A program made the position numbers and the translations under genes. A stretch of DNA of 43,043 nt, taken from NCBI GenBank assembly GCA_031386485.1, contig JANNCJ010000048.1, positions 1 through 43,043 on the forward strand. Direction: 5' to 3'. The notes below the pieces were generated by a model that saw only the letters and a list, made by a program, of their open reading frames with translations, was not told the origin of the DNA and did no database searches. The number at the start of each line of letters is the position of its first letter. Within the stretch, counting starts at the first letter, position 1. This stretch comes from a bacterium (GTDB lineage Bacteria > Patescibacteriota > Minisyncoccia > Phycocordibacterales > UBA5272). Below, one piece after another: positions 7,292 through 38,355 of this stretch.

Positions 7292-8437
7292 TTACATAAA
7301 ATCCATAAAATTATCGCGGTTAACAATTAGTAGTTTTGTATCGGCAAATCTTTGGTTAAAACTTTTAATAAGGCTATCCTTTATTTTATCCTCTCTCCAT
7401 TTACACTCAAGCCCCAAGAAATTACCATTTTCTTTTTCTAAAATATCCACCTCCTTACCGTCATAAGTGCGCCAGAAACACATGTCGACGAATTTGTTCT
7501 CGTGTTTATGTTTTTTGAGCCTCTCTATAAATACAAAATTCTCCCACAAGGCCCCAACATCACTACGGAGATCAAGCGGTGAAAAATTGCTTATTACCGA
7601 ATTACGAAAGCCAAGATCCACAAAATAGTATCTTTTATTCTTTCCTATTTCTTTCCTTTCATTCATTGTAGACACACTTTGTGAGCTAGCTATAATATAT
7701 GACTTCTCAAGTACAGAAAGGTAATTCTGAGCAGTAGCTCTGGAGAGATTAACCATATTTGCAATTTCATTTATCGACACATCATTACCAATTTGTAATG
7801 CTAACAACTTGAGAATGCTCCTTACTCCCTCATGATTCCTTATGCCTTCAAATTCTAAAACTTCTTTATACATGTATGCGTCAGCAAGCTCACGCACTAT
7901 GGACTCCTTCATTTTCTTATCACCCTCATTACAGACTGCGGGATATGACCCATATATTAATACACTCTCAACATAAGATAAAGAATGAACTCTACCAAAA
8001 GTGCTTTCGATCTCCCCCATATCTATTGGATAGAGATTGATATAGCTAGCCCTGCCAGTTAATGGCTCACTTGTATGATGTAGCAAACCAAACGCAGATG
8101 AGCCTGTAACTATAAATACCTTATCCTTATAAGTGTCTACTAAAAATTTTAAAGTTAACCCAACATGCTCTAGGTATTGAGCTTCGTCAATGATTACTAG
8201 CTTACTATCTCCAAGTATTGGTGATATTTTACCAACTGTTCTCGACTCTAATTCTTTCTTAAGTATCACATCATCTCCTTGCAGCCAGATTTTTTTGTCA
8301 GCACACTTATCATAATACTCTCGCAGCATTGTAGTCTTGCCTGACTGCCTCGGTCCATACACGACCAAAACTCGACCCGCTTTGGCAAAGTTATCTATAT
8401 TTTTATACTGCTTTCTTTTTATAAAAGATTTTGTCAT
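7292..8437 (-). CDS. P-loop ATPase + wHTH + PD-(D/E)xK protein (COG1373 / AAA_14-DUF4143-like), paralog 1
   Basis: Walker A GPRQSGKTT, Walker B VIIDEAQ, wHTH SINEIANMVNLSRATAQNYLSVLEKSYII, nuclease motif EVDILEK...GLECKW. Start moved to MTKSF (8437). Confidence 0.85.
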   Translation of the reverse strand: MTKSFIKRKQYKNIDNFAKAGRVLVVYGPRQSGKTTMLREYYDKCADKKIWLQGDDVILKKELESRTVGKISPILGDSKLVIIDEAQYLEHVGLTLKFLVDTYKDKVFIVTGSSAFGLLHHTSEPLTGRASYINLYPIDMGEIESTFGRVHSLSYVESVLIYGSYPAVCNEGDKKMKESIVRELADAYMYKEVLEFEGIRNHEGVRSILKLLALQIGNDVSINEIANMVNLSRATAQNYLSVLEKSYIIASSQSVSTMNERKEIGKNKRYYFVDLGFRNSVISNFSPLDLRSDVGALWENFVFIERLKKHKHENKFVDMCFWRTYDGKEVDILEKENGNFLGLECKWREDKIKDSLIKSFNQRFADTKLLIVNRDNFMDFM

Positions 8438-8454
8438 ATATTTAAATAATAATA

Positions 8455-8535
8455 CTAATAGCAATATTATACTCTAATAGCAATATTAAGTCAAATACTG
8501 CTATCGTACTAGCAATATTATGCCTAATATTGCTA
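8455..8535. repeat. iteron-like array of TAGCAATATTA (3 direct + 1 inverted)
   Basis: ctaatagcaatatta at 8455-8469 and 8474-8488. tagcaatatta at 8510-8520 and its reverse complement at 8525-8535 form an 11-bp perfect IR with a 4-nt spacer. Confidence 0.75.
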
Positions 8536-8537
8536 CT

Positions 8538-9821
8538 CTACATTTTATTATCCTGGAGCACCCACTTATTCTCTTTTACAAATAAAAATTTAAAGACAGC
8601 GATGAATATAAATATGGGGGCGATGAATGGATAGGCGAGGAAGTAAATCGGGAAATTGGGGAAAGTAGAAGTCTTATCCTCAGCTATATTCTTAGACACA
8701 AAGAGTACAAATATAAGTACAGTAATTAGAAATATAGACTGGAACAAAAGCACGTCAACCGTGAAATAGAATGGGTCAAAATTAAAATGGGGACGAGGCA
8801 CACCAACGCTTAGATATATCTGGATGCGATCAATCCAAAGCTGCAAGAATCTAATCACCATGTAACCCACTGCATACAAGACATAGAATATAAATATAGC
8901 CGCGATAGGTAGAGTGAATAATCCAAAATGCCCGTATTTCTTTTTAAAAAACATCTCTCTATAATCCCACGCATTGTGGAGGAATCCTCTTATCCATCTC
9001 ACTCTCTGATTAATTAGTCCTTTAAATGTATCAGGACCTATGGTGTAGACATAAGCTTTATGAGCATTGGCTATCTTGTAATGATTCTTATGTAATCTAA
9101 GCGTTATCTCAAAGTCCTCAGCATTATATGCGCTCTTATAATTACCAAGCTTCTCAAAAACTTCTTTCCTAAAAACCGAAAATGGACCAGGCATAACTTG
9201 TACCGCGTCGATACTCGAGTAGCTCTTCCTCCAGAATATGGATATCATGTACTCGACTGACTGCACCCTCTGCCAGAATGTCTTAATATCTCGCAGCTGC
9301 ATACAAGTAGCAAGCGCCATAATCTCTTTATTTTTAAAATATTGCATCGCAATACGAAGAGCATTAGGATGCAGTGTCGAGTCAACGTCAAGGCAGGCCA
9401 TATACTCAGTCTTGAGATGAGTGAGTCCGAGATTCATCGCGTGATGCTTACCCTGCTTCTCTTCAAAAAAGTATTCTATTCTACTTACCCCATTCTCCTC
9501 TTTTTCTTTTTGCATTTCTTTCATCACTATATCTCTCGTATAATCAGTGCTGTTGTTGTCTAAATAAAAAATTTTGATTTTATCTTTTGGATAATTGAGA
9601 TCTTGTATTGATTTTATTGTGGTAATGATATTCTTGCCTTCATTCCAACCCGGAAGCATAAATGTAATCTCTCCAAAATAGTTCTCACTCTCATCCTCTT
9701 CTTCTTTCATCTTTTTAAGCCCGATAAGAAAATTATAAAGCATAAATACTTGGAAATATAGAGATATAAATATAAATGGATATAATATACCTTCTGCCAG
9801 GCTACTGATGTGATAATTCAT
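8538..9821 (-). CDS. processive family-2 glycosyltransferase (membrane-embedded)
   Basis: DNNSTD and LDVDS acidic motifs, QRVRWIRG (QxxRW) motif, multiple TM helices. Confidence 0.85.
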   Translation of the reverse strand: MNYHISSLAEGILYPFIFISLYFQVFMLYNFLIGLKKMKEEEDESENYFGEITFMLPGWNEGKNIITTIKSIQDLNYPKDKIKIFYLDNNSTDYTRDIVMKEMQKEKEENGVSRIEYFFEEKQGKHHAMNLGLTHLKTEYMACLDVDSTLHPNALRIAMQYFKNKEIMALATCMQLRDIKTFWQRVQSVEYMISIFWRKSYSSIDAVQVMPGPFSVFRKEVFEKLGNYKSAYNAEDFEITLRLHKNHYKIANAHKAYVYTIGPDTFKGLINQRVRWIRGFLHNAWDYREMFFKKKYGHFGLFTLPIAAIFIFYVLYAVGYMVIRFLQLWIDRIQIYLSVGVPRPHFNFDPFYFTVDVLLFQSIFLITVLIFVLFVSKNIAEDKTSTFPNFPIYFLAYPFIAPIFIFIAVFKFLFVKENKWVLQDNKM

Positions 9822-9826
9822 TTGTT

Positions 9827-10552
9827 TTATTTCTTAGATTTAGTGCTGCTTGGGGTAGAAGAGGAAAGCTCTATAGAAGTGGAAGCTGTGCTTGTAGCTT
9901 CTCGCAGCGTATCTGGTAGTAATAGCTTAAGCTCAGCAAGCTTTTTGAGTCCATAATAAGTCTTGTCCTCTACGACCAGTATCGGGAAGGTGCTCGTGGC
10001 CTCAATCTTATAAATCTTTTTCATGGTATCTATTGGGGCTAAGCTTAGATCATAATCAAAAGTATAAACTCTAAGCTCAGGATAAGTTTGCCTCAGCTCA
10101 CTGATCACTGTAGCCTGCTTAGCACAATCCTCACAAAGACCTTTTTTGTTACTATACATATAGATCATGAATATTGGCTTATTGATATTGCCACATTTGT
10201 CTTGTATCTTTTTGCCTACAAGATAATCTTTGATTTGAAGTAGTGAATAATACTTTTTGAGATATATTACTGTATTATCATCAGCCCCGAGCTCTCCCTC
10301 AGCGTAGGTTAGTCTGTCGCCAAGATCATTGATCTGCCCAGCTACTGGGTTAAAGCTGTCATCACTGCAAGAAATTTCTTTAAGTAGGAACTGCGTCTCA
10401 TTCGACAGTATGTCGACAGAGATATTATTCTGTATACTGCTAATAGTATCAAGCTTCTTGTTGGTGAAGTATGATGAAGCATAAAATGTAGTAGTAAAAA
10501 TAGAAATAGTAATAATAAGTGCAACCAAGTATCTTGTGTAATCGTTGTTCAT
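9827..10552 (-). CDS. membrane-anchored thioredoxin-fold protein (CxxC)
   Basis: N-terminal TM helix, CEDC motif in a beta-alpha-beta context, Ser/Thr-rich tail. Confidence 0.45.
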   Translation of the reverse strand: MNNDYTRYLVALIITISIFTTTFYASSYFTNKKLDTISSIQNNISVDILSNETQFLLKEISCSDDSFNPVAGQINDLGDRLTYAEGELGADDNTVIYLKKYYSLLQIKDYLVGKKIQDKCGNINKPIFMIYMYSNKKGLCEDCAKQATVISELRQTYPELRVYTFDYDLSLAPIDTMKKIYKIEATSTFPILVVEDKTYYGLKKLAELKLLLPDTLREATSTASTSIELSSSTPSSTKSKK

Positions 10553-12664: not shown

Positions 12665-13858
12665 TTATAGTATGTCTCCTCCCCATATATAAGTATCAAA
12701 ATTTGGAGACTTGTGTCTGCCTATAATATTTTTCTTTTCTACACCAGCCTTATCTGCCATACCTCTTAAAGTCGCAACATCACTTTCTGTTGGAGTTTCT
12801 TTTGCTTCAAAAGCGAATTTACCACTAAGAATAAAATCAATCTCTCGGCCATCTTTTAAAGAAAAATATTTGATTTCTGATTTATGTTTCAACTGACTAT
12901 ATAAAGCATTTTCAAATCTAGACCCGCTATCTATATCGCTGAGCACAGAGATAATCCCGTTGTCACCAAAATAAATTTTTTTAGCCTTCACTATTTCCCT
13001 GTCTCTATTTTTAGTATGCACTGGCACAAGTGATAACAAGTAAGTTTTTTCGAAAAGTGAAATATAACTTTGCACCGCTTGTCTTGAGAGACCAGTCAGG
13101 CGCGATAATTTTGAATAATCTAATTTGGTACCTACTCTGCTTGCTAACATCTTTACAAGATTAACAATAGCATCAGCATCCTTAAAATCTGCAATACTTT
13201 TTATATCTATGTTTATGTATGAGCTTATAATATCTTCTAAAATATCTTTCTTTTCTTTTATCGATGAAGCCAGTACAACTCTAGGGAAGCCTCCGTATTC
13301 AATATACTCTTCATAATAAGATTTTAATCTTTCATATTCGTGTAAATTGATATTCTTTAAATCTTCTAACTTGTGGTTAGGTTTGAAGTTAATACTTTTA
13401 AAAGTTAAAAACTCTCCGAAGTCTATAGGAGATAATTCAAATAGCTTTTTTCTACCAGACAGCGATTCGGTAAACAGATTCTTAAGATAATAAGAACTAG
13501 ATCCAGTCAAAATGAATTTTATATTATAGTGATCACTCAGGTATTTAACTACACTAGAAATATTTGGAAGAGTTTGTATTTCATCTACTGCAACATACAT
13601 TCTTTCGTTTTTGTTCAAGCCTTGTTTTTCTAATGCCAAAATAACGTTATCATAATTTTTATCTAAAAATATTTCTCTATTGGATATTTTCTCCAAGTCT
13701 AAAAAAACTTTGTTGCTAGAATGTATGTCTTCTAATAAATGCTGCACAAGAGTTGTCTTGCCAGTACGACGCATGCCAGTAATTATAGTTACATCATTAT
13801 TTTTTAGATGTTCTTTTACGTCTATGTAGATTTTTCTTTGAAAATACTCATTTCTCAT
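12665..13858 (-). CDS. P-loop ATPase + wHTH + PD-(D/E)xK protein, paralog 2 (most divergent)
   Basis: Walker A GMRRTGKTT, Walker B VAVDEIQ, wHTH LSRLTGLSRQAVQSYISLFEKTYLL, nuclease motif EIDFIL...FAFEAKE. Confidence 0.85.
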   Translation of the reverse strand: MRNEYFQRKIYIDVKEHLKNNDVTIITGMRRTGKTTLVQHLLEDIHSSNKVFLDLEKISNREIFLDKNYDNVILALEKQGLNKNERMYVAVDEIQTLPNISSVVKYLSDHYNIKFILTGSSSYYLKNLFTESLSGRKKLFELSPIDFGEFLTFKSINFKPNHKLEDLKNINLHEYERLKSYYEEYIEYGGFPRVVLASSIKEKKDILEDIISSYINIDIKSIADFKDADAIVNLVKMLASRVGTKLDYSKLSRLTGLSRQAVQSYISLFEKTYLLSLVPVHTKNRDREIVKAKKIYFGDNGIISVLSDIDSGSRFENALYSQLKHKSEIKYFSLKDGREIDFILSGKFAFEAKETPTESDVATLRGMADKAGVEKKNIIGRHKSPNFDTYIWGGDIL

Positions 13859-13879
13859 ACCTTTCCATTATATCAAAAT

Positions 13880-13917
13880 CTTTACTAAATGTAAAGCTGG
13901 CCTTACATTTAGTAAAG
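13880..13917. promoter_or_regulatory. perfect 15-bp inverted repeat ctttactaaatgtaa-N8-ttacatttagtaaag
   Basis: Starts 22 nt upstream of the paralog 2 ATG. No upstream same-strand gene exists for it to terminate. Confidence 0.7.
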
Positions 13918-14090
13918 AAATTTGTAGAATATTTTAACAAATACATAATTTCCCACATATAGATTATAGCTATAAATTTCATAAGCCGGGCAGAAGCTGA
14001 TCTATAGTCCAAGAGAGCGCTAGTGATGAAAATAAAATCGAAATATGCTATAATAAATTCCATAACTAATAAAATTAGTTAAATAAACAT

Positions 14091-14176
14091 GGAGACGTGG
14101 CTGAGTGGTCTAAGGCACCTCACTGCTAACGAGGCGACCCGTCAAAGGTCCGAGGGTTCGACTCCCTCCGTCTCCG
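14091..14176 (+). tRNA. tRNA-Ser (GCU)
   Basis: Acceptor ggagacg/cgtctcc, anticodon loop ctgctaa, long variable arm, T-arm gaggg-ttcgact-ccctc. CCA is not encoded. Confidence 0.9.
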
Positions 14177-14251
14177 CCTACGTCCGCTGAAGCGGACTAC
14201 GGCGGACAAAGTCCGCAAGTAGTTCGCGAAAGAGGATAAGATATTATAAAT

Positions 14252-14491
14252 ATGTTCTATGTATATATATTAAAATGTGCTGACGGAAAGCCGTATACTG
14301 GCTGTACAAATGATCTAAAAGATAGGGTTAAAAGGCATAAAGCTGGATATATTGACGCAACAAAATCTGGACTACCAGTTGAATTAGAAAACTATTTTGC
14401 ATTTAAAGATGAAAAGGTTGCTTTTAGATTTGAGAAATATTTAAAGTCAGGTTCTGGGAGAGCATTTGCTGTGAAGCATTTTGAGAAATAA
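14252..14491 (+). CDS. GIY-YIG nuclease family protein (79 aa)
   Basis: FYVYILKC...GKPYTGCTNDLKDRVKRH matches the GIY-(x10)-YTG and R-x3-H motifs of the short YhbQ/URI-type family. Confidence 0.85.
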   Translation: MFYVYILKCADGKPYTGCTNDLKDRVKRHKAGYIDATKSGLPVELENYFAFKDEKVAFRFEKYLKSGSGRAFAVKHFEK

Positions 14492-14501
14492 GACTTGTGA
14501 C

Positions 14502-14590
14502 CGACTCCCTCCGCTCCCCTCATACGCCTCGCTTTATCTCGGCTTCGGCGTGACACAGTCCGCCAAAACGAGCGATAAAGGGAAATAAAA
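14502..14590 (+). repeat. diverged direct repeat of the tRNA-Ser 3' end plus trailer
   Basis: cgactccctccg-ctcc (14502-14517) matches the tRNA at 14159-14175. The following cggcgtgacacagtccgcc...cgagcgataaaggg parallels cggcggacaaagtccgc...ttcgcgaaagagg at 14200-14235. Confidence 0.6.
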
Positions 14591-14635
14591 ATTATATCCA
14601 TAGTCTGCGATTTATAAATATGGTATAATGCTTAT

Positions 14636-15184
14636 ATGTTAGACATAGATGCATTGAGTAAAGAGAGGGCCTTAAAACTTTTTGATAGCGAGGAGCTTAA
14701 CTCTTTTGAAGTGGGTACTGCTAAGGGTTTACAGCAAATACACAAGTATCTTTTTAGCGATCTATATGACTTTGCAGGTATACTACGAACTGTAGACATT
14801 AGTAAGAGCGGATTTCGTTTTGCTTCACATCTTTACTTAAGTAAAGTATTAGAAGAGATCGAAAAGCTGCCGGAGAATAATATGGAAGAGATAGTTAAAA
14901 AATATGTAGAGATGAACATCGCTCACCCATTCCGTGAGGGTAATGGCAGATCTATGCGTATCTGGCTTGATTTAATATTAAAGAAAAATTGTAAGCAGTG
15001 TGTTGACTGGCAAAAGATAGACAAGCTGGCATATCTAAGCGCCATGGAGAGGAGTCCCGTGAATGATATTGAGATACGTGAGCTATTGCGTAGCGCCCTT
15101 ACTGATAAGATAAACGATAGAGATGTGTATATGAAAGGCATAGAGCAATCATATTATTATGAAGAGGTAGATTATTATAAGTAA
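14636..15184 (+). CDS. fic: Fic-family protein (AMPylase type)
   Basis: Catalytic [12 protein letters not shown] motif. The C-terminal [10 protein letters not shown] resembles the SxxxE inhibitory helix of class III Fic proteins. Confidence 0.9.
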
Positions 15185-15278: not shown

Positions 15279-15968
15279 ATGTATAAGAAAATAATTCTGA
15301 CCCTTGCCTTTCTTTTAACCATTAGCTACAACACTATTCTAGCTAATCAGGATATAGATAGATATACTGCGCCTAATGTGAGCGATGTGACTGAAAGTAG
15401 TGCGACATTTATGGTGCCATATAAAGTCTCTGCACTCTTAGAGCTAGACGATAAGAGTCAGATATATTTCGAATACTATGAGACTAATCAGGTCTGTATT
15501 ATGATATACCCGACCCCAGAGTATTGCTTACCCAAAAAGACTAAGATTGGTGATCTGAGTGTTAAGATTAATAATCTCAAGGCTTCCACTTCTTATACTG
15601 TGGCATATAAAAGAGATAATAGTATAAGATGCATCACGACTCCATGCCCTACCAATGACTTTGCAAGTATTAGTACAGAATTCACAACTAAGGCTAACAC
15701 AAACAATTCAACCTCAACTTATAATAACAATATCCAAATCACCAAAAATCTCTGGTTAGGAAGTAGGGGGTCACAAGTCACTACACTTCAGAATGTACTC
15801 ATAGCACAGGGACATATGTCTGGCTCAGCAACTGGCTACTTTGGCATGATAACATTTAAAGCAGTTAAGAAATTCCAGAGGGCGCACAATATTCCTCCGA
15901 CCGGATTCGTAGGTAAGCTGACTAGAGCTGTACTGAATGAGATACTGACACCTGAAAGCTATAATTAA
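15279..15968 (+). CDS. secreted protein with C-terminal peptidoglycan-binding domain
   Basis: Signal peptide MYKKIILTLAFLLTISYNTILA. C-terminal LGSRGSQVTTLQNVL...GYFGMITFKAVKKFQ is typical of PG_binding_1. Confidence 0.7.
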   Translation: MYKKIILTLAFLLTISYNTILANQDIDRYTAPNVSDVTESSATFMVPYKVSALLELDDKSQIYFEYYETNQVCIMIYPTPEYCLPKKTKIGDLSVKINNLKASTSYTVAYKRDNSIRCITTPCPTNDFASISTEFTTKANTNNSTSTYNNNIQITKNLWLGSRGSQVTTLQNVLIAQGHMSGSATGYFGMITFKAVKKFQRAHNIPPTGFVGKLTRAVLNEILTPESYN

Positions 15969-16000
15969 ATAACAACGGTGAGAGTTGCTTGAAAGAAATT

Positions 16001-16435
16001 TTAATACTTCTTTAACCACTCGCTCATCATTTTCATTTCCCCTTCTTGAGCTGATATAATCCGATTAGCAAAAGCTTTGAGCTCCGCGCTAACTGTAGGA
16101 TCAGCAAGCAACTTCTTAGCCATAAGTACTGCCCCTTGATGATGTGGTATCATGCCTGTTATAAACTCTTTCTCTAAAGCTTTACCACTTTTACCATCCA
16201 TCATGCTCACCATATCATTCATGGTCATGCTATCCATAGCACTCTCCATACTATGGCCCATATTCATATCATCATTATCCATATTCATCATGTGAGAATT
16301 ATTAGACTCTCTCATGTTTATTCCAGTCATATCAGAATTGCTATACATAAACATGTTGTCCCATCCCCATGCATAAGTCACGATTAGTAAGAACGATAAT
16401 ATTAATGTAACGTATTTATAGTTTATGTTTTTCAT
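16001..16435 (-). CDS. DUF305 protein with Met/His-rich metal-binding region
   Basis: MIPHHQGAV...AQEGEMKMMSEWL is the DUF305 signature; it is preceded by a MNMDNDDMNMGHSMESAMDSMTMNDM tract. Confidence 0.8.
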   Translation of the reverse strand: MKNINYKYVTLILSFLLIVTYAWGWDNMFMYSNSDMTGINMRESNNSHMMNMDNDDMNMGHSMESAMDSMTMNDMVSMMDGKSGKALEKEFITGMIPHHQGAVLMAKKLLADPTVSAELKAFANRIISAQEGEMKMMSEWLKKY

Positions 16436-16486
16436 ATTTTTGATTTAATTATTTAATTAAATGTGATTTATAATATTTTACGATGC

Positions 16487-17113
16487 TCACATTAACATCA
16501 TAAAAAGTACCATGACTAGCATAAGGAAATTTTCTGAGAATGTAACCCAAGTCATAGGCAGCTTAAATATCGTGCCGAGACACACGCACTCTATCTCATC
16601 AGCGTGACCCATATACTTGTAAGCTGTATATGTCCCGATCAAAGAAAGTGCTAAGACTAATAGATTCTGCCACAAAAACATAAAGCCTGCTAAATATAGA
16701 ATTCCAAGCCCTATCTCGATAAATGGATAGGCGTAGCCATAAGACTTAAATCTTTTGGTAATTACATCATACATCTCAAACCCTTCGACAAAGCCTTTAA
16801 GATCTATTAATTTGAAAAGACCAAAAACTAAGAAGAAAATTCCCATGAAGTCCATCATGTATAACATCGGCTCAAAATTGCTAAAGTCTTGTCGTATTAA
16901 TGGGAATAGTGCAATAAAGGCAAAGACATACATTAGTGGTACGAGTCTCTTGTGTTTATTTATAGGAGGTAAACTGACGAGGTCAATACTCGGCTTACTT
17001 GCTACATTGAGTTTGTGATGATCACAAAAGTAGTGTTCTATATTATCACTGTCTCTTTCAACATGCGTCGCACTCATACTGCAAAGCTCACATTTTTGAT
17101 TTTGATTTTGCAT
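16487..17113 (-). CDS. MauE/DoxX-like membrane protein with N-terminal Cys/His cluster
   Basis: CELC...H...CDHH N-terminus followed by 4-5 TM helices. Start moved to MQNQNQ (17113) to avoid overlapping the upstream gene. Confidence 0.55.
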   Translation of the reverse strand: MQNQNQKCELCSMSATHVERDSDNIEHYFCDHHKLNVASKPSIDLVSLPPINKHKRLVPLMYVFAFIALFPLIRQDFSNFEPMLYMMDFMGIFFLVFGLFKLIDLKGFVEGFEMYDVITKRFKSYGYAYPFIEIGLGILYLAGFMFLWQNLLVLALSLIGTYTAYKYMGHADEIECVCLGTIFKLPMTWVTFSENFLMLVMVLFMMLM

Positions 17114-17117
17114 ATAT

Positions 17118-17609
17118 TTAATGGTAATCTCTTGATTGTGCTGAGGCTTCTCCGTGATTGTTTTCTCCCAGTAACGTGTCATCCATTATATAAACAGAAA
17201 AAAGAATTAAAAGGAAAGAGAATATTGCCAAAATAAAAATATTCTTAGTTTTAAGAACTGCTCTCTCTTTTATAAAGTAAGTGAGGTAGGTCCCAACTAG
17301 ACCGATACCAAGCAAGATACCAGCGTATGACGGATTATCCAGATAATGTTGAATACCCCCAGAAATAAAACCAGTAGCAAAAGAAAGTCCTGTTATTAGA
17401 AGTAGATAATCTAAGTTTATTTTCTGACCATTTTGTTTTGCTTCTAAAACATTACCAATTAACATTAGAATTAATCCAATTATCATTAAAACTATATACC
17501 TACCAAAACCATTCTGTAGTGCGCCAATATGCACTACAGAGCCAGCAATCAGTGCAACACCTAAGTATTTACCGATATAAATTAAAAAGTTTTTGTTTTC
17601 GTTCGACAT
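17118..17609 (-). CDS. integral membrane protein (163 aa), unknown function
   Basis: Five predicted hydrophobic helices. Lies between csoR and the MauE-like gene on the same strand. Confidence 0.5.
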   Translation of the reverse strand: MSNENKNFLIYIGKYLGVALIAGSVVHIGALQNGFGRYIVLMIIGLILMLIGNVLEAKQNGQKINLDYLLLITGLSFATGFISGGIQHYLDNPSYAGILLGIGLVGTYLTYFIKERAVLKTKNIFILAIFSFLLILFSVYIMDDTLLGENNHGEASAQSRDYH

Positions 17610-17611
17610 AA

Positions 17612-17884
17612 TTATTTTCTTTTTAATTTATATACTTTTACAATCTCTTTTTGCATTTCGGCTAATTTATTCTTGTTGCTATCTTTGTATAAACAATGAG
17701 ATAAGTGGCTTTCTAGCATTTCATCTTCAAGACTTGAAATAGCGCTTTTTATGGCACTGGTTTGAGTAATTATATCTATACAATACTTGTCATCAAGTAT
17801 CATTTTTTCTACACCATTTATCTGACCTTTTATTTTTTTGATACGATTAATTACTTTTTTATTGTCTATGTGTATACCGTGCAT
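17612..17884 (-). CDS. csoR: CsoR/RcnR-family metal-sensing repressor
   Basis: INRIKKIKGQINGVEKM helix and a C...H-x3-C ligand pattern (KYC ... SHLSHC). Start set at MHGIH so that the operator palindrome stays non-coding. Confidence 0.8.
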   Translation of the reverse strand: MHGIHIDNKKVINRIKKIKGQINGVEKMILDDKYCIDIITQTSAIKSAISSLEDEMLESHLSHCLYKDSNKNKLAEMQKEIVKVYKLKRK

Positions 17885-17895
17885 ATAATATATTG

Positions 17896-17914
17896 TATAC
17901 CCCCGTGGGGTATA
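17896..17914. promoter_or_regulatory. CsoR-type operator TATACCCC-cgt-GGGGTATA
   Basis: Perfect 8-bp inverted repeat with G/C tracts, 12 nt upstream of the csoR ATG. Resembles described CsoR operators. Confidence 0.7.
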
Positions 17915-17929
17915 AGTCAAGCGTATATT

Positions 17930-26697: not shown

Positions 26698-26717
26698 GTT
26701 TTGTGTTTGGTTTGGGA

Positions 26718-27980
26718 TTAATACTCCCTCATTGTCAGCTGAGCGTCGATCTTTTTCATAAGATCAATAATTACAGATATAGCAATTAGGAGCGATGTGC
26801 CACCAACTGATAGAGCTTGGACTCCGGTTAAGCCAGATAATATAATCGGAAGTAGCGCGACTGTGCCGAGGAATATGGCTCCCACTGTTGTTGTTCTCAT
26901 CAGCACATTACTAATATACTCAGTTGTTGCTTCGCCTGGTCTGTGCCCGGGTACAAAAGCGCCTGATTTTTGTAAATTTTCTGAAGTCTTAACTGGGTCA
27001 AAAGTAACCATCGTATAAAAGAATGTAAACATTACTATAAGAGCAAAATAAATTACTCCATATATCCAGCTATTGCCGATTATCATGGCTATCTTCTGGG
27101 CTATCAGTTGTAATGTGGCTGAGTCTGAGCTCTGCATGAGCTGGGCTGCCATCTGAGGAAAGGTCATGAGTGAGACAGCAAAAATAATAGGTATTACTCC
27201 CGCTAAGGTAAGGCGGAGCGGTAAGTATGATGTGGTCAGGCCTGTTGTCGTATACCCTCTTGATTGCTTAGCGTAAGTCACTTCTATCGGCCTCTCGGCC
27301 TCAGTCACTGCAACGATGCCCATTAGAACCAATATAAATGTTATAAATAGTGCTATATACATTGGAATTTGCGATGGGTCCACAGTGCCCATTATTGACC
27401 AGAGCTTAGCAGGGAGAGTTGCAACTATTCCTGAGAATATTATCAAAGAAATGCCGTTGCCGATACCCTTTTCATTAATTACTTCACCGAGCCACATCAT
27501 AAGCATTGACCCTGCAGTAATTATAATTATGTTTGTGGTAAACTCTGTCTTAGTCATGGCCTCTATCACACCCTGCTTAACAAAGAGCGTGAGGAGACCA
27601 ATTGCCTGTAGCACTGCAAGTGGTGGCGTCAACCATCTTGTATACTTGGCATACTTACGTCTACCAATCTCACCCTCTTCTTGCTGCATCTCTTTTAGCT
27701 TAGGGTAGAGCACAGCTACTAGCTGCATTATAATACTCGCAGTAATATATGGCTGTACTCCAAGCATAACAAATGACATTGAGGATAAGCCCCCACCCGA
27801 GAATATATTAAGCATGCCGAGGAATTGATTATCGCTTACAAATGAAGCTAGGTCCTTGCCGCTTACAGAAGGTATCGGTACTATAGATAGTATTCTAGTA
27901 ATTAATAATATTGCGAGCACAAAAAAGATTCTATTTCTTATGGCTGCATCAAGCATCACAGATTTTAAGTATTTAAACAT
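26718..27980 (-). CDS. secY: preprotein translocase subunit SecY
   Basis: 10-TM profile; LGVQPYITASIIMQL, GEVINEKGIGNGISLIIF. Confidence 0.95.
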   Translation of the reverse strand: MFKYLKSVMLDAAIRNRIFFVLAILLITRILSIVPIPSVSGKDLASFVSDNQFLGMLNIFSGGGLSSMSFVMLGVQPYITASIIMQLVAVLYPKLKEMQQEEGEIGRRKYAKYTRWLTPPLAVLQAIGLLTLFVKQGVIEAMTKTEFTTNIIIITAGSMLMMWLGEVINEKGIGNGISLIIFSGIVATLPAKLWSIMGTVDPSQIPMYIALFITFILVLMGIVAVTEAERPIEVTYAKQSRGYTTTGLTTSYLPLRLTLAGVIPIIFAVSLMTFPQMAAQLMQSSDSATLQLIAQKIAMIIGNSWIYGVIYFALIVMFTFFYTMVTFDPVKTSENLQKSGAFVPGHRPGEATTEYISNVLMRTTTVGAIFLGTVALLPIILSGLTGVQALSVGGTSLLIAISVIIDLMKKIDAQLTMREY

Positions 27981-28216: not shown

Positions 28217-28954
28217 TTATTTTTTTAAGCTCTCGTAAATCTCTACAAATCTGTTAATGCTGCTGGTAATAATAATATAGTCTTTGTTATAATACCCATA
28301 TACAAAAGCTCCACTCTCTCCATCAGCAACTCTCATATTAATATTCTTTATACTAACATCATTAAAAGTGCTTAAATTAAAATACTTAAATTTATTCTTG
28401 GCTAAGCCTTTAAAGACATTTTCGTCTTCTAATATTGCTTGGTACAAATTGTCAAAATTACTAATGCGAATTACGATAGAGTCGTCTGTGGATGTGGCCT
28501 CGCTAGTGTAGCTAAAAAGCTTCTTACTTATGGGGTCATTCCAGACGTCTAGCACAGTATACTTTGGAGCTTCTACTTTTACTTCTTCTATTATGACTGG
28601 CTTTTTATAAACTAAGAAATAGTAAGCTGCAGCCCCGCATATAAGAAGCAAAAAGATTGCTAATCCGGCTATTACTATTAAGCGTTTTCTCTTTATAACA
28701 TTATCAGCTTCGAATGTGTTGCCGCTGGTATCCATTTGACCGCTTAAGATCTTAATCTTATTAATATTGTCTTTACGAATATTATCATAGACATCGCTCT
28801 CCATAGTATGTATCACTGGTATATCTCCTGACTTTTTGGTCAGCATGTGCAGCCTTTCTTCTTCCCTCTTTTCTTGCTCTAACTTCTCTTCGAGGCTAGG
28901 CTCTTCACCAATTGTAGCGTCATTAATATTTATAATTTTATCTTTATTGTCCAT
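28217..28954 (-). CDS. hypothetical single-pass membrane protein
   Basis: Acidic N-terminus, TM helix LIVIAGLAIFLLLICGAAAYYFLVY. Overlaps the NYN gene by 11 nt. Confidence 0.5.
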   Translation of the reverse strand: MDNKDKIININDATIGEEPSLEEKLEQEKREEERLHMLTKKSGDIPVIHTMESDVYDNIRKDNINKIKILSGQMDTSGNTFEADNVIKRKRLIVIAGLAIFLLLICGAAAYYFLVYKKPVIIEEVKVEAPKYTVLDVWNDPISKKLFSYTSEATSTDDSIVIRISNFDNLYQAILEDENVFKGLAKNKFKYFNLSTFNDVSIKNINMRVADGESGAFVYGYYNKDYIIITSSINRFVEIYESLKK

Positions 28955-29522
28955 TTTCTAATTCTACTACATTTACAGATTTTTTGTAAGGTCTTTTTGC
29001 AGGTTTACGGGTTAACTTACTTATTAATAGATATTTCTTAGGGTCGTCATCAAGGTCAAGGAAGGCTTCAGTGCTCTCCTTAAGCTTACTAGACGTCGAC
29101 CTACCAAATGAAACTACTTCAACTTGTACTCCTAGACTTTTAAGCTGCTCAACGAGCGGCACGAAGTCACCATCTCCGGTAGCTAAGACTATAGTGTCCA
29201 CTTTACTTGCAAGTCTAAGAGCGTCAACTGTGATGCCAACATCCCAGTCTGCTTTTTTGTTACCACCATGAAATATCTGCAGGTCTTTACTCTTCGTTTC
29301 TATCCCCATTTTTAAAAGAGCGTCGAAAAACTGAGCCTCGTCCTGAGCTTCTGTTGTTATGAGATAGGCTATTGCTCTTACTAACTTTCTTTCTCCTACT
29401 GCGGAGTCGAGTACGTTGCTAAAATTGACTCTTGAGTTATAGATGTTACGTGCACTGTGATATAGATTTTGCGTATCTATTAAGACCGCCACTCTTTGTG
29501 AGGTATGTTGTATTACTGACAT
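28944..29522 (-). CDS. NYN-domain (LabA/DUF88-like) protein
   Basis: VAVLIDTQNLYHSARN ... DWDVGITVDAL ... IVLATGDGDFVPLVEQLK acidic-residue pattern of NYN ribonuclease-like domains. Confidence 0.8.
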   Translation of the reverse strand: MSVIQHTSQRVAVLIDTQNLYHSARNIYNSRVNFSNVLDSAVGERKLVRAIAYLITTEAQDEAQFFDALLKMGIETKSKDLQIFHGGNKKADWDVGITVDALRLASKVDTIVLATGDGDFVPLVEQLKSLGVQVEVVSFGRSTSSKLKESTEAFLDLDDDPKKYLLISKLTRKPAKRPYKKSVNVVELENGQ

Positions 29523-29718
29523 ATTTTAAATTTGAATTATTTGAATTAATATTTAAACTTGATTAATAAAATAATTATTTTATATTAATTAATCACCTAT
29601 ATATTATATTACTTTGCTCGCATAATAGCAAATCTTAGCCTGCTCCCCCACGGAGTTATACCCAAATAAAATACCCATATTCACATGAGCATTTTATCTT
29701 TGAGCGTTTCGATTACCC

Positions 29719-29985
29719 TTATGCCTTAAGTCCAACCTTTTTAGATATGTCTTTAAGTCTCTTGGTAGACTGTCTGCCTATATATTTGAGATGTGATCTG
29801 CGATCTGAGACCATCTTGATGAGGCCGCGGCGTGAGTGATTATCTTTCTTGTGTGTTTTAAGATGGCTTGTGAGCTCTTCTATACGTCTCGAAAGAATAC
29901 CGACCTGAACTTCTGGTGATCCAGTATCTTCGCCGTGAAGCTGTACATTCTTGATAACGTTTAATTTTTTCCTTGTGGTTAACAT
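29719..29985 (-). CDS. rpsO: 30S ribosomal protein S15
   Basis: GSPEVQVGILSRRIEELTSHLKTHKKDNHSRRGL signature. Confidence 0.95.
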   Translation of the reverse strand: MLTTRKKLNVIKNVQLHGEDTGSPEVQVGILSRRIEELTSHLKTHKKDNHSRRGLIKMVSDRRSHLKYIGRQSTKRLKDISKKVGLKA

Positions 29986-32830: not shown

Positions 32831-32864
32831 AAAATAAATCTCACAGCAATGTGGGATTTATTTT
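32831..32864 (-). terminator. intrinsic terminator after ATPase paralog 3
   Basis: 15-bp stem aaaataaatctcaca / tgtgggatttatttt with a 4-nt loop and a T-rich 3' arm. Confidence 0.7.
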
Positions 32865-32880: not shown

Positions 32881-34035
32881 TTAGGAAGAAGTAAGACTCT
32901 CTCTATAATTCTCTGTGGTTACTACTTTAAAAGCAATATTTAGATTTTTGTTATTTTGAATAAAGATTTTGGGGTTCTTTTTTCTTTTTATATTTCCTGT
33001 TGTGATCTCAAAAGCTTCCACCTCAGTATTCCACTTTTCTAAATAATCAATCTCTTTACCATCAACATTACGCCAAAAGTACGCCTGCTTAAAATTATTT
33101 TTGTATGAATTAGCTTTTAGCTTTTCTACTATAAAATAATTCTCAAACAATGCACCCACATCTCTCCTTGCCACTTTATGAGTACCGATATTAATCTCAC
33201 TAAAATCGTTGATTAGAGCATTCCTGATGCCAACGTCATAAAAATAGAATTTACTTTTCTTGGTGATCTCACCTCTAGCATTATTACTGTAACTTTTAAG
33301 TCTAAATATAACAAAAGACTGCATAAGTAAGTCAATGTATCTCTCTATGGTCTTGCTTGTAGTTCCTAGCTCTTGGCTTATTTTGTTTATACTGACTTCA
33401 CTGCCTAGCTGATATGCCAGGGTCTTTAATAAATTGATTAATAATTCTGGTTTTTTTAAATTATCAAATTTTAATATGTCTTTAAGTAAAAAGGAATCGG
33501 TGAGAGATTTTATTTTAATTATTTTATCTTCTACACTAATCTTTGTAACAACCTCAGGATAAGAACCAAATCGGAGAGTGTAATCAAGGTGCGACTGTGG
33601 GTCAAAGTATTGCGACTCTCTTATTTCTTTGTCAGTTAGTGGGTAGAGATTGAGTAGTATATTGCGTCCCATAAGGGGCTCGCCTATTTGCCCGGCAAGT
33701 TCAAATGAAGATGAGCCGGTTACAATAATTTGCAAATCCTTATAATTATCTATAATTAACTTTAGATTTATCCCTATATTTTTGATGTTCTGAGCTTCGT
33801 CTATAAAGAGTAAGTCGAGACCTTCGACATACTCTTTTAGTTTTTCTAATCTTTGTGAAGAGAATATCTCTTGTGCTGTTAGACTGTCTCCTATATAGAC
33901 TCTATATTTACCTTTAAAATTAGCAAGATAGCTATTAATTATAGTAGTTTTACCCACTTGTCTTGGCCCATAGACAATAAGCACTTTACCTTTTTCTATG
34001 TAATCACCTATTTTAATTTGTCTTTTTACTAGCAT
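32881..34035 (-). CDS. P-loop ATPase + wHTH + degenerate PD-(D/E)xK protein, paralog 3
   Basis: Walker A GPRQVGKTT, Walker B LFIDEAQ, wHTH SINKISQELGTTSKTIERYIDLLMQSFVI. Nuclease motif EIDYLEK...AFEITT lacks the Lys. Confidence 0.85.
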   Translation of the reverse strand: MLVKRQIKIGDYIEKGKVLIVYGPRQVGKTTIINSYLANFKGKYRVYIGDSLTAQEIFSSQRLEKLKEYVEGLDLLFIDEAQNIKNIGINLKLIIDNYKDLQIIVTGSSSFELAGQIGEPLMGRNILLNLYPLTDKEIRESQYFDPQSHLDYTLRFGSYPEVVTKISVEDKIIKIKSLTDSFLLKDILKFDNLKKPELLINLLKTLAYQLGSEVSINKISQELGTTSKTIERYIDLLMQSFVIFRLKSYSNNARGEITKKSKFYFYDVGIRNALINDFSEINIGTHKVARRDVGALFENYFIVEKLKANSYKNNFKQAYFWRNVDGKEIDYLEKWNTEVEAFEITTGNIKRKKNPKIFIQNNKNLNIAFKVVTTENYRESLTSS

Positions 34036-34054
34036 TTTACCTTTTTATTATACT

Positions 34055-34090
34055 CCAAGTACAAAAATATGTCAATATTCTTGTACTTGT
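34055..34090. promoter_or_regulatory. 16-bp imperfect inverted repeat (14/16) with 4-nt loop
   Basis: ccaagtacaaaaatat-gtca-atattcttgtacttgt, starting 20 nt upstream of the paralog 3 ATG. A further gtacaag follows at 34092-34098. Confidence 0.6.
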
Positions 34091-34109
34091 GGTACAAGAA
34101 GAAAGAGTT

Positions 34110-35750: not shown

Positions 35751-36881
35751 CTAGACATTAATACTTGGATCAATAAAATCTTCTATAGACAACACTCTGG
35801 TAGCTGACTCTGGGTATAACTTTAAAAACTGCTTAAAAGATACATCTTCCTTTTTCCATTTGCATTCAGTCGCTACTATTTTATCATTTTTATGTTCGAT
35901 AAAATCAATCTCTAGCTTTGTGTCAGTTCTCCAGAAATAAACTTTGCTTGGGAGATTTTCTAAGTTCGATTTTTTAAGTATTTCAAGAAACACAAAATTT
36001 TCAAACAGCGCTCCTTTATCTTTTCTATTTTCAACCAAGTCAAAGTTGTCGACTATGGCATTCCTGATTCCCAGGTCAAGAAAAAATATTTTAAAAGACT
36101 TTTTCAGTTCATTCCTTCCATTTCTAGAGTAAGATCCAATTTTTTTAATTATGTATGCTTGCTCTAAAAGTTTTAGATATTTCTGTACACTGTCACGGCT
36201 TATGCCTACTGCTTGGGCGATTTCATTTATAGAGACTATTTGACCTATTTGAAATGCTAGCATCCTAATAACATCCTCAAAGATTTGAGGATTGCGTATT
36301 GATTCATAAATATAAATATCTTTATACAAATAATTCGTGGCTATATTTTTTAAAATCTGAGTTTTGACCATTACATTACTTTCTCGCACCACTTCAGGAT
36401 ATTGGCCGCTCCTTAGCATTTCACTGATATCCTCTTTTTTTATTTCTTTACTGCCTCTAACTTCTTCTAGACTGAGTGGGTATAAAGTAAATTCAAATGA
36501 TCTCCCGGTCAGAGGCTCATTAATTTTATTTGCGAGATCAAAAGAAGATGAACCTGTGGCGATAATTTGTACATCCTTATATGTGTCGAGATAAAGTTTT
36601 AATATAGCTCCAATGTTTTGTATAGTCTGAGCTTCGTCAAGGACCACAATTTTTTTATTTTTGAACATTTGGTGAAGCGGCTTTGGGTCACCAAGAATAA
36701 AATTATTCCTAACCTCGATACTTTCACAGTTAAAATACTCCCCATCTCCACCATAATCTTTTACAAGCTTTTTAGCGAGAGTGGTTTTTCCTGCTTGCCT
36801 TGGCCCAAATACTAAAATAGCTTTACCTCTAAAAAGAAGCTCCCTAATATTTTTCTCTATTGTCCTCTCAAAAATTACCAT
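35751..36881 (-). CDS. P-loop ATPase + wHTH + PD-(D/E)xK protein, paralog 4
   Basis: Walker A GPRQAGKTT, Walker B VVLDEAQ, wHTH SINEIAQAVGISRDSVQKYLKLLEQAYII, nuclease motif EIDFIEH...ATECKW. Confidence 0.85.
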   Translation of the reverse strand: MVIFERTIEKNIRELLFRGKAILVFGPRQAGKTTLAKKLVKDYGGDGEYFNCESIEVRNNFILGDPKPLHQMFKNKKIVVLDEAQTIQNIGAILKLYLDTYKDVQIIATGSSSFDLANKINEPLTGRSFEFTLYPLSLEEVRGSKEIKKEDISEMLRSGQYPEVVRESNVMVKTQILKNIATNYLYKDIYIYESIRNPQIFEDVIRMLAFQIGQIVSINEIAQAVGISRDSVQKYLKLLEQAYIIKKIGSYSRNGRNELKKSFKIFFLDLGIRNAIVDNFDLVENRKDKGALFENFVFLEILKKSNLENLPSKVYFWRTDTKLEIDFIEHKNDKIVATECKWKKEDVSFKQFLKLYPESATRVLSIEDFIDPSINV

Positions 36882-36893
36882 ATCTACTATTAT

Positions 36894-36923
36894 AGACTAT
36901 TGCGGAAAAAAACGCAATAGTCT
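36894..36923. promoter_or_regulatory. perfect 11-bp inverted repeat agactattgcg-N8-cgcaatagtct
   Basis: Starts 13 nt upstream of the paralog 4 ATG. Confidence 0.7.
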
Positions 36924-37003
36924 GTTTTTCTTATTATAACCTTATAATGTAAGGCTTAAAAATAGGGTAAATTTTTAATTATTAACTCATTAAAATAACG
37001 AAA

Positions 37004-37150
37004 ATGAAATGTCTCTCTTGTTTGGTTTTAGTTTTGCTGTGTCTTCTTAGCGCGTGCACCGCGCAGTCCTGCACCGTATGGTGCGGGACGAAGTGGTGTG
37101 CCGTCGTGGAGGATGTTAGAACTAAGTTTAGCATAAAGTGTCATGGGTAA
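37004..37150 (+). CDS. possible 48-codon Cys-rich prelipoprotein-like sORF (alternatively a GC-rich structured element)
   Basis: MKCLSCLVLVLLCLLSAC|TAQSCTVWCGTKWCAVVEDVRTKFSIKCHG*. Lipobox LSAC. No clear Shine-Dalgarno. Overlaps two strong GC hairpins (37050-37064, 37066-37089). Confidence 0.35.
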   Translation: MKCLSCLVLVLLCLLSACTAQSCTVWCGTKWCAVVEDVRTKFSIKCHG

Positions 37151-37212
37151 TTTATCTACGTTACTTAAACACTAAATGAAGAAATCTATGAAGTTTTTAG
37201 CGGATTTAAAAA

Positions 37213-38355
37213 TTATCTGAAACCAAAGATATCTTTATAATTTACGCAGTATTCTGGCATACTAATAACTTTTGTTTTTGCTTTGCTATAGAGAGCCAGG
37301 AATTTGTTAAAAACAACTTCCTGGTTACTCCACTTACATTCATAAGCTTTTATCTCCTCATTTTTATTCAAAACAAAATCTACTTCTATCTGTTCTTTTG
37401 TTCTCCAGAAATATATTTTTGTTGCCCAGAAGTCCAGCGACTCTCTTTTTAGAAGCTCCATAAAAATATAATTTTCAAAAAGAAAACCTTTATCTGCTCT
37501 ATCTTCTACTAGGCCAAAAGAATCAATGACAGCGTTACGAACGCCAAGATCAATAAAATATATTTTAAATGATTTTTTTAATTCGTTACGCTGATTTGTA
37601 TTAAACGAATTTACTCTTTTGATAACATATGACTGTTCTAATAGTCTTAAATACTTGTCTACGGTAAGCCTACTTATTCCAAGAGTTTTAGATAATTCAT
37701 TTACAGAAACCATTTGACCTATTTGATGTGCGAGGAGCTTGAGTAAATTTTCAAAAATTGTGGGATTTTTAATATTTTCAAAAATATAAATATCTTTGTA
37801 CAGATAATTAGTCGTTATGTTACGAAGTATGTTTATTGCTAAATCTTTATCGTTTTCTGCTACCACACTCGGATAATTACCTAACCTTAATAGTTCAAAA
37901 AATTTATCTTTTGTTGGTGTCGTAAGCTCTATCTCTTCTGTAGAAAGTGGGTATAAAGTGAATTCAAATGACCTTCCTGTTAGCGGCTCATTGATTTTAT
38001 TTGCCAGATCAAAAGAAGATGATCCTGTGGCTATTATTTGCACATCTTTATATGTGTCTATAAAAACTTTTAAAATAAAACCTATATTCATTACTGTCTG
38101 AGCTTCGTCTAAAACTACAATTTTCTTATTGCCTATTAAATTTTTAAGAAGCTCGGGCCTACCCTCTTGCATTGCAGACCTGACGTCCATCAGCTCACAG
38201 TTAAGATAAAGACCTTTTTCTCCGTATTCTTCTACAATCTTTTTAGCAAGAGTGGTTTTGCCTGCCTGCCTTGGGCCAAAAATTAAAATTGCCTTCCCCT
38301 TAAACAGTAGTGGTTTTATTCTGTCTTCGAGTTTCCTTTTAAATATTTTTTTCAT
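37213..38355 (-). CDS. P-loop ATPase + wHTH + PD-(D/E)xK protein, paralog 5 (tandem duplicate of paralog 4)
   Basis: A 39-aa block DTYKDVQIIATGSSSFDLANKINEPLTGRSFEFTLYPLS is identical to paralog 4. Nuclease motif EVDFVLN...AYECKW. Confidence 0.85.
   Translation of the reverse strand: MKKIFKRKLEDRIKPLLFKGKAILIFGPRQAGKTTLAKKIVEEYGEKGLYLNCELMDVRSAMQEGRPELLKNLIGNKKIVVLDEAQTVMNIGFILKVFIDTYKDVQIIATGSSSFDLANKINEPLTGRSFEFTLYPLSTEEIELTTPTKDKFFELLRLGNYPSVVAENDKDLAINILRNITTNYLYKDIYIFENIKNPTIFENLLKLLAHQIGQMVSVNELSKTLGISRLTVDKYLRLLEQSYVIKRVNSFNTNQRNELKKSFKIYFIDLGVRNAVIDSFGLVEDRADKGFLFENYIFMELLKRESLDFWATKIYFWRTKEQIEVDFVLNKNEEIKAYECKWSNQEVVFNKFLALYSKAKTKVISMPEYCVNYKDIFGFR

Follow-up and report, generated by a model that had tools for sequence, protein, structure and literature searches.

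PDC-S01 is a single-gene phage defence candidate that was nominated from homologues embedded in other defence loci (bioRxiv 10.1101/2024.01.29.577857). As PDC-S01/AAA_14-DUF4143, it reportedly ranks fourth among defence-type loci in prokaryotes, with ~29,500 bacterial and 10,000 archaeal instances, and lineages with small genomes, Patescibacteria among them, are noted for an enrichment of single-gene candidates of its kind (PMC12988326). In rumen genomes, no other single locus is as frequent (PMC13356809), and a representative tested in E. coli B did not protect against T4, T5 or T7 (bioRxiv 10.1101/2024.09.26.614923). Both DUF4143, whose function is unassigned, and DUF234 have been classed as PD-(D/E)xK (PMC3424549). 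For DUF4143, COG1373, PF13173 and PF13635, no upstream palindromes or DNA specificity are described in the searchable literature, which holds classification-level mentions only. Here, we analyzed a 43 kb stretch of a Patescibacteria genome (contig JANNCJ010000048.1, hereafter the window; 31–41% GC) that carries five minus-strand paralogs of this family, P1 to P5, each preceded by repeats that overlap its promoter. These sites are very probably functional cis-elements that are inherited together with the gene. The reading that we favour, with some reservation, is that they are operators for the gene's own product, which would repress its own transcription through its winged helix.

The original prediction had proposed that the five paralogs share one architecture, an ATPase followed by a winged helix-turn-helix (wHTH) and a PD-(D/E)xK nuclease-like domain. 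The open reading frames (ORFs) all lie where they had been placed on the minus strand, each with a central helix-turn-helix segment, and the Pfam domains and Walker motifs agree with the proposal (Table 1); the wHTH string quoted as an example belongs to P4. All five proteins matched AAA_14 (87–102 bits, cut-off 27) and then DUF4143 (81–142 bits, cut-off 28.1), with nSTAND3 above its Pfam cut-off only in P2. The full-length PADLOC PDC-S01 profile (PDLC04789) also matched all five, over approximately positions 2–370 of 375 (2–337 in P2). The family had been called functionally unassigned, which was nearly right: it is the PADLOC candidate defence system PDC-S01. Pairwise identity among the paralogs was 26–59%. 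In their alignment, Walker A (G-x-R-x-x-GKTT) and Walker B (h-DE-(A/I)-Q) were invariant (columns G28, R30, G33, K34, T35, T36 and D84, E85, Q87). The C-terminal motif E-(I/V)-D ... E-x-K, which had been claimed for all five, was found in P1, P2, P4 and P5. Around residues 335–345, P3 carries E-I-T, without the lysine, at the place of the nuclease E-x-K; judging by this replacement, P3 may have no catalytic activity and serve solely as a DNA-binding ATPase or regulator.

An AF2 model of P4 (pLDDT 92, pTM 0.91) consists of an AAA+ core, a helical lid, a three-helix winged helix (residues ~198–267) and an alpha/beta nuclease domain (~270–376). Foldseek searches with this model returned generic AAA+/STAND/ORC cores only, at a TM-score of ~0.3, and no full-length solved homologue; among the matches were Orc1/Cdc6 on origin DNA (2qby_B), MalT (8bob), Apaf-1 and Avs5. 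The sole significant PDB match at the sequence level was the uncharacterised protein 2FNA (E 4.5e-10). The closest relatives in species-level genomes came from metagenome-assembled genomes of Patescibacteria (candidate phyla radiation), with identities of at most 63%. The contig itself was also found in a public run.

Table 1. Positions of the five paralogs, of the repeats and promoters upstream of them, and of related elements in the window. Promoter matches are given as positions agreeing out of 12.
Feature	Position	Strand	Details
P1 coding sequence	7292..8437	-	381 aa; AAA_14 ATPase, wHTH, DUF4143 PD-(D/E)xK nuclease; Pfam AAA_14 2.7e-25, DUF4143 1.1e-34; PDC-S01 4.9e-123
P1 putative operator array and promoter	8459..8535	-	four copies of the 11-mer TAGCAATATTA: 8459-8469, 8478-8488 and 8510-8520 direct, 8525-8535 inverted; palindrome 8510-8535, 11 bp perfect; TTGACT-17-TATAAT, -35 at 8489-8494, -10 at 8466-8471, 11/12
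P2 coding sequence, most divergent copy	12665..13858	-	397 aa; AAA_14 2.2e-29, DUF4143 1e-22, nSTAND3 2.9e-8; PDC-S01 2.9e-63
P2 inverted repeat and promoter	13867..13918	-	palindrome 13879-13918, 16-bp arms 13879-13894 and 13903-13918; TTTACA-17-TATAAT, -35 at 13890-13895, -10 at 13867-13872, 11/12
P3 coding sequence	32881..34035	-	384 aa; PDC-S01 3e-123; nuclease E-x-K replaced by E-I-T
P3 putative operator and promoter	34047..34100	-	palindrome 34056-34089, CAAGTACAA arms 34081-34089 and 34056-34064, 9 bp perfect, extendable; third half-site 34092-34100; TTGACA 34070-34075, 17-nt spacer, TATAAT 34047-34052, 12/12
Stem-loop with flanking T/A runs	32831..32864		just past the P3 stop codon; likely terminator closing the P3 transcription unit
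P4 coding sequence	35751..36881	-	376 aa; PDC-S01 6.3e-127; AF2 model
P4 putative operator and promoter	36889..36923	-	AGACTATTGCG-N8-CGCAATAGTCT at 36894-36923, 11 bp perfect arms 36894-36904 and 36913-36923; TATAAT 36889-36894
P5 coding sequence, in tandem with P4	37213..38355	-	380 aa; PDC-S01 9.1e-128; 59% identical to P4
P5 putative operator core	38390..38419	-	TTGC-N10-GCAA 38401-38418, N5, TATAAT 38390-38395; 6-bp repeat 38400-38419
Third exact copy of TTGC-N10-GCAA-N5-TATAAT	29603..29631	-	80 nt upstream of an NYN-domain gene (28944-29522)

Four strong palindromes had been predicted upstream of P1 to P4, and all four are present. An inverted repeat (IR) score of at least 11 was found upstream of 4/5 paralogs versus 3/37 other genes of the window (Fisher p = 0.0015). 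For P5, only a weak 6-bp repeat had been reported; it exists, but it is the conserved TTGC-N10-GCAA core that P5 has in common with P4. This shared core had been missed, as had the four copies of the P1 element, the third half-site upstream in P3, and the overlap of every repeat with a promoter. In P1, the palindromic pair lies upstream of the -35 hexamer, a further copy in the spacer, and the last one over the -10 and start site. In P2, the promoter-proximal arm lies over the -35 hexamer, and the -10 hexamer stands 8 nt before the ATG. The arms of P3 bracket a perfect -35 hexamer, and P4 has TTGC at the -35 position, a 17-nt spacer with a T-rich centre and a -10 hexamer 7 nt before the ATG, a leaderless layout. 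The geometry of P4 and P5, TTGC-N10-GCAA-N5-TATAAT, is identical. The best promoter-like minus-strand matches in our scan were exactly those upstream of P1, P2 and P3.

The palindromes had also been described as different for every paralog. This applies to P1, P2 and P3; P4 and P5 depart from it, with their common core and geometry and with a third exact copy before the NYN gene. Exact half-sites of P1 to P4 were absent from the rest of the window beyond the upstream region of their own gene. The strict 29-nt pattern (TTGC-N10-GCAA-N5-TATAAT) had three matches in the window versus none in 100 shuffles. Its third copy sits between an S15-like ribosomal protein ORF (29719–29985) and the gene of the NYN-domain nuclease. 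By its sequence, it could be an additional target that belongs to the P4/P5 regulon, or a promoter left behind by a lost paralog.

A TATAAT-like hexamer ending 5–7 nt before the start codon was found for ~17 of 42 genes in the window (examples are the starts at 2517, 14636, 22006, 22713, 27980, 31093, 31873 and 40243), and a Shine-Dalgarno-like motif for only four of the 42. Leaderless transcription thus seems to be the norm in this Patescibacteria genome. With this layout spread across the genome, the -10 assignments of P1 to P5 are credible and the repeats would lie in the untranscribed core promoter; for the same reason, a leaderless start was discarded as a trait specific to the family.

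We then surveyed the family at large. The survey set comprised 80 loci from many phyla with relatives at 38–63% identity, taken with 10-kb flanks and with genes called mechanically; the locus search used a query built on four of the five paralogs. A profile hidden Markov model identified 91 family members, including the five of the window, and each gene was scored by the best ungapped IR in the 100 nt before its start. A raw score of at least 11 was reached by 23/77 family genes versus 27/521 other genes with an upstream spacer of at least 60 nt (p = 1e-9). After normalization against 100 dinucleotide shuffles per region, 27.6% of family genes versus 8.8% of controls had a repeat at p <= 0.02 (with the window genes excluded, 20/82 versus 44/495, p = 1.5e-4). 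When only significant repeats at most 40 nt from the start were counted, 29/87 family genes (33%) and 44/521 others (8%) had one, an odds ratio of 5.4 (p = 6e-9); without the window, the counts were 26/82 and 43/495 (p = 1.4e-7). The median distance from repeat to start was 12.5 nt in the family and 35.5 nt in controls. Start-proximal palindromes are, then, commoner before family genes than before unrelated genes, and they are not terminator-like. The comparison with other genes had been named beforehand as one able to overturn the original prediction, which it did not.

The conservation of the sites was followed among orthologs. The P4/P5 clade set contained 18 genes: the two paralogs, nine from genome loci and seven from loci obtained by exact-protein look-up. 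A metagenome scan gave 12 loci with two close relatives, and further orthologs were added by 12 exact-protein look-ups, so the covariation sample is a limited one. Exact TTGC-N10-GCAA with a T-rich centre preceded 15/18 of the clade genes, and a version with one mismatch was found in locus L005. In most clade members, 5 nt separate the motif from a -10-like hexamer, and another 6–9 nt separate this hexamer from the ATG; P5 and L101 differ in having leaders of ~35 nt. Across 1.3 Mb of fetched loci, the strict 29-nt pattern occurred solely directly before family genes, the NYN copy of the window aside. The P4 operator is identical in an ortholog with 73% protein identity (L097). Outer arm positions vary between P4/P5 orthologs yet stay complementary: in an alignment of 16 sequences, 83% of cells were complementary versus 67.5% in shuffles (0/500) and 35–42% with the partner arm slid. 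Double changes were seen at 8/13 arm positions, and the covariation score was 0.40 versus 0.14.

Orthologs of the other paralogs behaved similarly. L107, 68% identical to P1, keeps the whole four-site array at ~90% nucleotide identity in a neighbourhood where ribosomal protein L5 replaces the glycosyltransferase, and a 64% ortholog of P1 has two direct repeats containing ATATTTGCT at a spacing of 32 nt. The P2 half-site TTTACAT(T/A)T(A/G)GTA over the -35 hexamer is kept in four orthologs (L103–L106), which also have additional copies arranged differently. Half-sites are present in direct and in inverted orientation in P1, L107, L108 and L017, and it is this occurrence of direct copies beside inverted ones that favours protein-binding sites over hairpins. 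Separately, we observed that the two close orthologs L014 and L017 carry, ~80 nt before the start of their family gene (locus positions ~9920–10000), a tandem duplication of units made of a half-site plus a -10 element. Their half-sites show a compensatory change (TAGGTTA/TAACCTA versus TAAGTCA/TGACCTA) and represent another clade-specific operator type.

Which protein reads these sites was approached through the wHTH segment. It matched HTH_11 (~1e-4) and HTH_29, both below the Pfam gathering score, and the HTH regions of Csa3 and CasR below threshold. In a PDB profile search with the wHTH only, the top matches were TtgV, CRP/FNR and ArsR at E 0.06–1, sub-threshold values that amount to a hint only. 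These alignments cover the turn and the recognition helix, with the pattern G-x-SR-x-(T/S)-V-x-(K/R)-Y-L; the corresponding string of CRP is GCSRETVGRIL. The recognition helices differ among the five paralogs (SRATAQN, SRQAVQS, TSKTIER, SRDSVQK and SRLTVDK), and related helices accompany related half-sites. SRD helices are paired with TTCGC-type cores reading TTGCG (P4, L097 and L101), and the equally close L094 has SRL with TTGCT. Helices of the type SRTT..YLT are paired with GGAATTTGC (L002, L082 and L100), DKNT(V/I)EKY helices with TTCAC(G/A)AA palindromes in six Bacteroidota genes, and LDN(E/Q)T helices with TTGCG-N8-CGCAA in three distant genes. This pairing of helix and site in sequence, seen in a small sample, fits the prediction of autoregulation.

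Alternatively, the repeats could be operators for another trans-acting regulator, such as a host global factor or the product of a neighbouring gene, with the winged helix of the family being of the STAND type and not reading the sites. The resemblance of the fold to a STAND/ORC core of nucleotide-binding domain (NBD), lid and winged helix (WH) speaks for this explanation, as do the exact motif copy before the unrelated NYN gene and the sub-threshold level of the wHTH similarities in the PDB. The sites, however, differ between paralogs of one genome yet recur with their orthologs in other phyla and in unrelated neighbourhoods, where no regulator gene was seen as a conserved neighbour. Apart from the NYN copy, the strict motif was confined to family promoters in the fetched loci, and related helices go with related sites. 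Taken together, we regard control by a foreign regulator as unlikely.

The position of the repeats relative to gene boundaries bears on another explanation, namely that the palindrome is a mobility or nuclease site, either a cassette end or the place where the protein's own PD-(D/E)xK domain cleaves or nicks, with any transcriptional effect secondary. Nucleotide homology between orthologs starts at the outer edge of the palindrome in P1 (8535) and P4 (36923), and at the -35-proximal arm in P2 (13893–13896), and the neighbouring genes of orthologous cassettes differ from genome to genome. Since homology starts at the palindrome while neighbours differ, the inherited or moved unit would comprise operator, promoter and gene. 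A mobility or nuclease site would agree with this boundary, with the frequency of the family on plasmids, with the multiple paralogous copies and with the nuclease domain of the protein. No second copy or terminal inverted repeat was found at the 3' end of any paralog, though, and a Pfam scan of the five paralogs found no recombinase or transposase domain. The fixed -35/-10 register in 15/18 orthologs is a need of a promoter element, not of an element end, and the insertion contexts have no common target. A cassette bounded by terminal inverted repeats was ruled out, the half-sites being upstream of genes only. As the primary role of the repeats, we find a mobility or nuclease site improbable, while noting that it is compatible with a role as operator.

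Intrinsic terminators, or RNA hairpins of upstream transcripts, can also produce inverted repeats. A consensus scan flagged 13879–13918 (-) and 36892–36925 (+) as terminator-like, and P1 and P3 are each closely preceded by a co-oriented gene. Against this, no same-strand gene reads into P2, as the original prediction had rightly pointed out (the tRNA-Ser, a small ORF and the Fic gene upstream are plus-strand features), and the plus-strand side of P4 likewise has none reading into it. The arms are AT-rich (22% GC as the mean of the family group versus 39% in control repeats) and T-tails were present in 12% of the family repeats. Repeats were similarly frequent whether the upstream gene was divergent (7/16) or co-oriented (26/65). 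They lie between the -35 and -10 hexamers, 10–14 nt from the ATG; direct-repeat copies exist; and L107 has a separate GC-rich terminator farther upstream of its operator array. We rejected intrinsic terminators on the GC content of the arms, the rarity of T-tails and the divergent neighbours of P2 and several orthologs, and consider this explanation very improbable. An RNA element found no support in Rfam either: only four tRNAs reached the gathering score, with nothing credible near the upstream regions of P2 and P4 at E <= 1. Chance palindromes, which upstream regions of 20–30% GC would favour by inflating IR scores, can practically be dismissed, being excluded by the dinucleotide shuffles, the same-locus gene controls, the conservation in orthologs and the compensatory covariation.

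In the autorepression that we favour, each paralog would be an autonomous single-gene PDC-S01 cassette that runs from a sigma-70-type promoter of its own, with a short leader or none, to a terminator of its own. Half-sites with dyad symmetry, some of them reiterated, would be embedded in the -35, spacer or -10 region and bound by the CRP/IclR-like wHTH as a dimer or higher oligomer. Bound protein would occlude RNA polymerase; through this self-repression, the level of a potentially toxic ATP-dependent nuclease would stay low and buffered. Repression is favoured because the sites of P1, P3, P4 and P5 lie in the spacer or over the -10 hexamer; the dyad of P2 leaves activation open. Recognition helices and outer half-site bases would have diverged together, leaving P1, P2 and P3 mutually insulated, while the common core of P4 and P5 would permit cross-regulation, perhaps including the NYN-nuclease operon. 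The paralog-specific autoregulation suggested in the original prediction is thus consistent with the promoter position, enrichment, compensatory change and co-inheritance of the sites, with the qualification that P4 and P5 may regulate each other.

Several observations weigh against autorepression by each gene's own product. A significant IR was present in only ~30–40% of family genes by our simple ungapped metric. The dyad of P2 is centred near -39 to -41, a position that activators use too. P4 and P5 share one core, one copy of the motif (29603–29631) stands before a gene outside the family, and part of the core conservation in the P4/P5 clade (TTG) is explained by the -35 hexamer itself. 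The correlation between helix and operator comes from a few kin sequences, uncorrected for phylogeny, and could reflect co-inheritance. The fold matches to Apaf-1, MalT and Avs5 indicate that an NBD-lid-WH core can use its WH for intramolecular regulation, not DNA binding, and the identity of the protein bound at the sites is something that we infer from sequence.

A bolder extension, which we put forward as speculation and think rather doubtful, is that PDC-S01 proteins are sequence-specific, ATP-dependent DNA-binding nucleases that use the site in their own promoter as a titration sensor, or else a very large, overlooked class of ATP-dependent transcription factors and no defence system. Under titration, invading DNA rich in cognate sites, or an ATP-dependent signal, may pull the repressor off the promoter. 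Its release may lead to a burst of nuclease aimed at the same sites, with the fast-evolving recognition helix setting the specificity. If the site did also serve the nuclease as target or sensor, a new kind of immune logic would emerge: arrays of paralogs would form a panel of orthogonal specificities, and the family would be a methylation-independent, self-inducing analogue of restriction.

We also searched viral contigs for the full palindromes of P4, P1 and P2, which gave zero, one and zero matches, respectively, and is uninformative as a test of targets. The sole match, to the P1 palindrome TAGCAATATTA-N4-TAATATTGCTA, lies inside a small ORF at 2687–2712 of L109 (IMGVR_UViG_3300014913_000098). 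It has no family gene nearby, and its frequency is near chance. Homologues of the family were found in 529 plasmid records versus only 21 phage records.

Although its logic is ordinary, such autoregulation is undescribed for this very abundant and uncharacterised family. The dyad sites provide a concrete candidate DNA ligand for the family's winged helix and would turn an unassigned domain into a testable module. Near-consensus sigma-70 promoters should work in E. coli, which would allow a simple assay. Self-limited expression of the native cassette is a possible reason for failed heterologous tests. Insulated operators would also explain how several paralogs coexist without cross-talk in a reduced genome of the ~1-Mb class.

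The surroundings of the paralogs were scanned over the ORFs of the window outside 15279–27980 and 42027–42977 (16 ORFs lie in these two intervals). The neighbours were housekeeping genes (cytidylate kinase, MurB, a PilB-type ATPase and ribosomal protein S15) and accessory genes (patatin, a Fic gene, NYN, DUF3800 and a pentapeptide-repeat protein). Defence-type matches among them were limited to the Fic gene (PDC-S04) and, weakly, to NYN. The Fic/DOC-domain gene (14636–15184, +) is divergent from P2 and matched PADLOC PDC-S04 at E 3.9e-91. In total, at least six genes of this 43-kb part of a reduced genome are phage defence candidates.

Two intergenic regions had further features. A tRNA-Ser(GCT) gene (14091–14178, +) is followed by GC-rich hairpins and an ORF of ~80 aa (~14251–14500, +) with an N-terminus that is GIY-YIG-like by eye, and part of the 3' end of the tRNA is repeated near 14520–14545. 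The sequence of 14091–14600 suggests that a small element has inserted at this tRNA gene, within the divergent spacer that precedes P2. Another spacer, the 330 nt between P5 and P4, contains a GC-rich island of ~110 nt (37020–37130) in surroundings of 33% GC. The island had no Rfam match at E <= 1 and folded just modestly better than shuffles (z = -1.8).

Among described systems, PDC-S01 (COG1373) is the closest. It has the same ATPase-wHTH-PD-(D/E)xK domain order as the window paralogs and is likewise a single-gene, often solitary system found in small-genome lineages and on plasmids. Among the ORFs scanned, the neighbours of the window paralogs are housekeeping and accessory genes, and the paralogs are not embedded in restriction–modification (R-M), BREX, DISARM or Hma loci, the context from which the family was nominated and which is not required of each member. 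Archaeal ATPase_2 (Arch_ATPase) proteins with DUF234 (PDB 2FNA) follow the same ATPase-wHTH-nuclease logic; they belong to other Pfam families and are distant and equally uncharacterised. STAND NTPases (Apaf-1/MalT/Avs) have a similar core fold, but the paralogs end after the nuclease at ~380 aa, without sensor repeats.

DnaA, MalT and Orc1/Cdc6 likewise have a P-loop AAA+/STAND-like core, a helical lid and a C-terminal (winged) helix domain. DnaA autoregulates via boxes in its own promoter, and archaeal orc1/cdc6 genes adjoin ORB repeats. Unlike the paralogs, these proteins have no nuclease; the similarity is at a TM-score of ~0.3, there is no membership at the sequence level, and it is implausible that a bacterial chromosome would have five origin-like sites within 43 kb.

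In mechanism, the nearest parallel is with the controller (C) proteins of R-M systems, such as C.PvuII and C.AhdI, which have a dyad operator over the -35 hexamer, leaderless transcripts, autoregulation that limits the nuclease, and insulated specificity groups. C proteins are separate Xre-type HTH proteins of ~80–100 aa, encoded beside an R-M pair, that first activate and then repress. The paralogs are like them in having a dyad-symmetric site over the -35 hexamer of their own promoter and a leaderless layout and, as proposed here, autoregulation and insulated groups. They are unlike them in carrying the HTH inside a ~380-aa ATPase-nuclease, with no methyltransferase or restriction enzyme adjacent. 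By analogy, the paralogs would resemble C proteins in mechanism only, not as members of that family.

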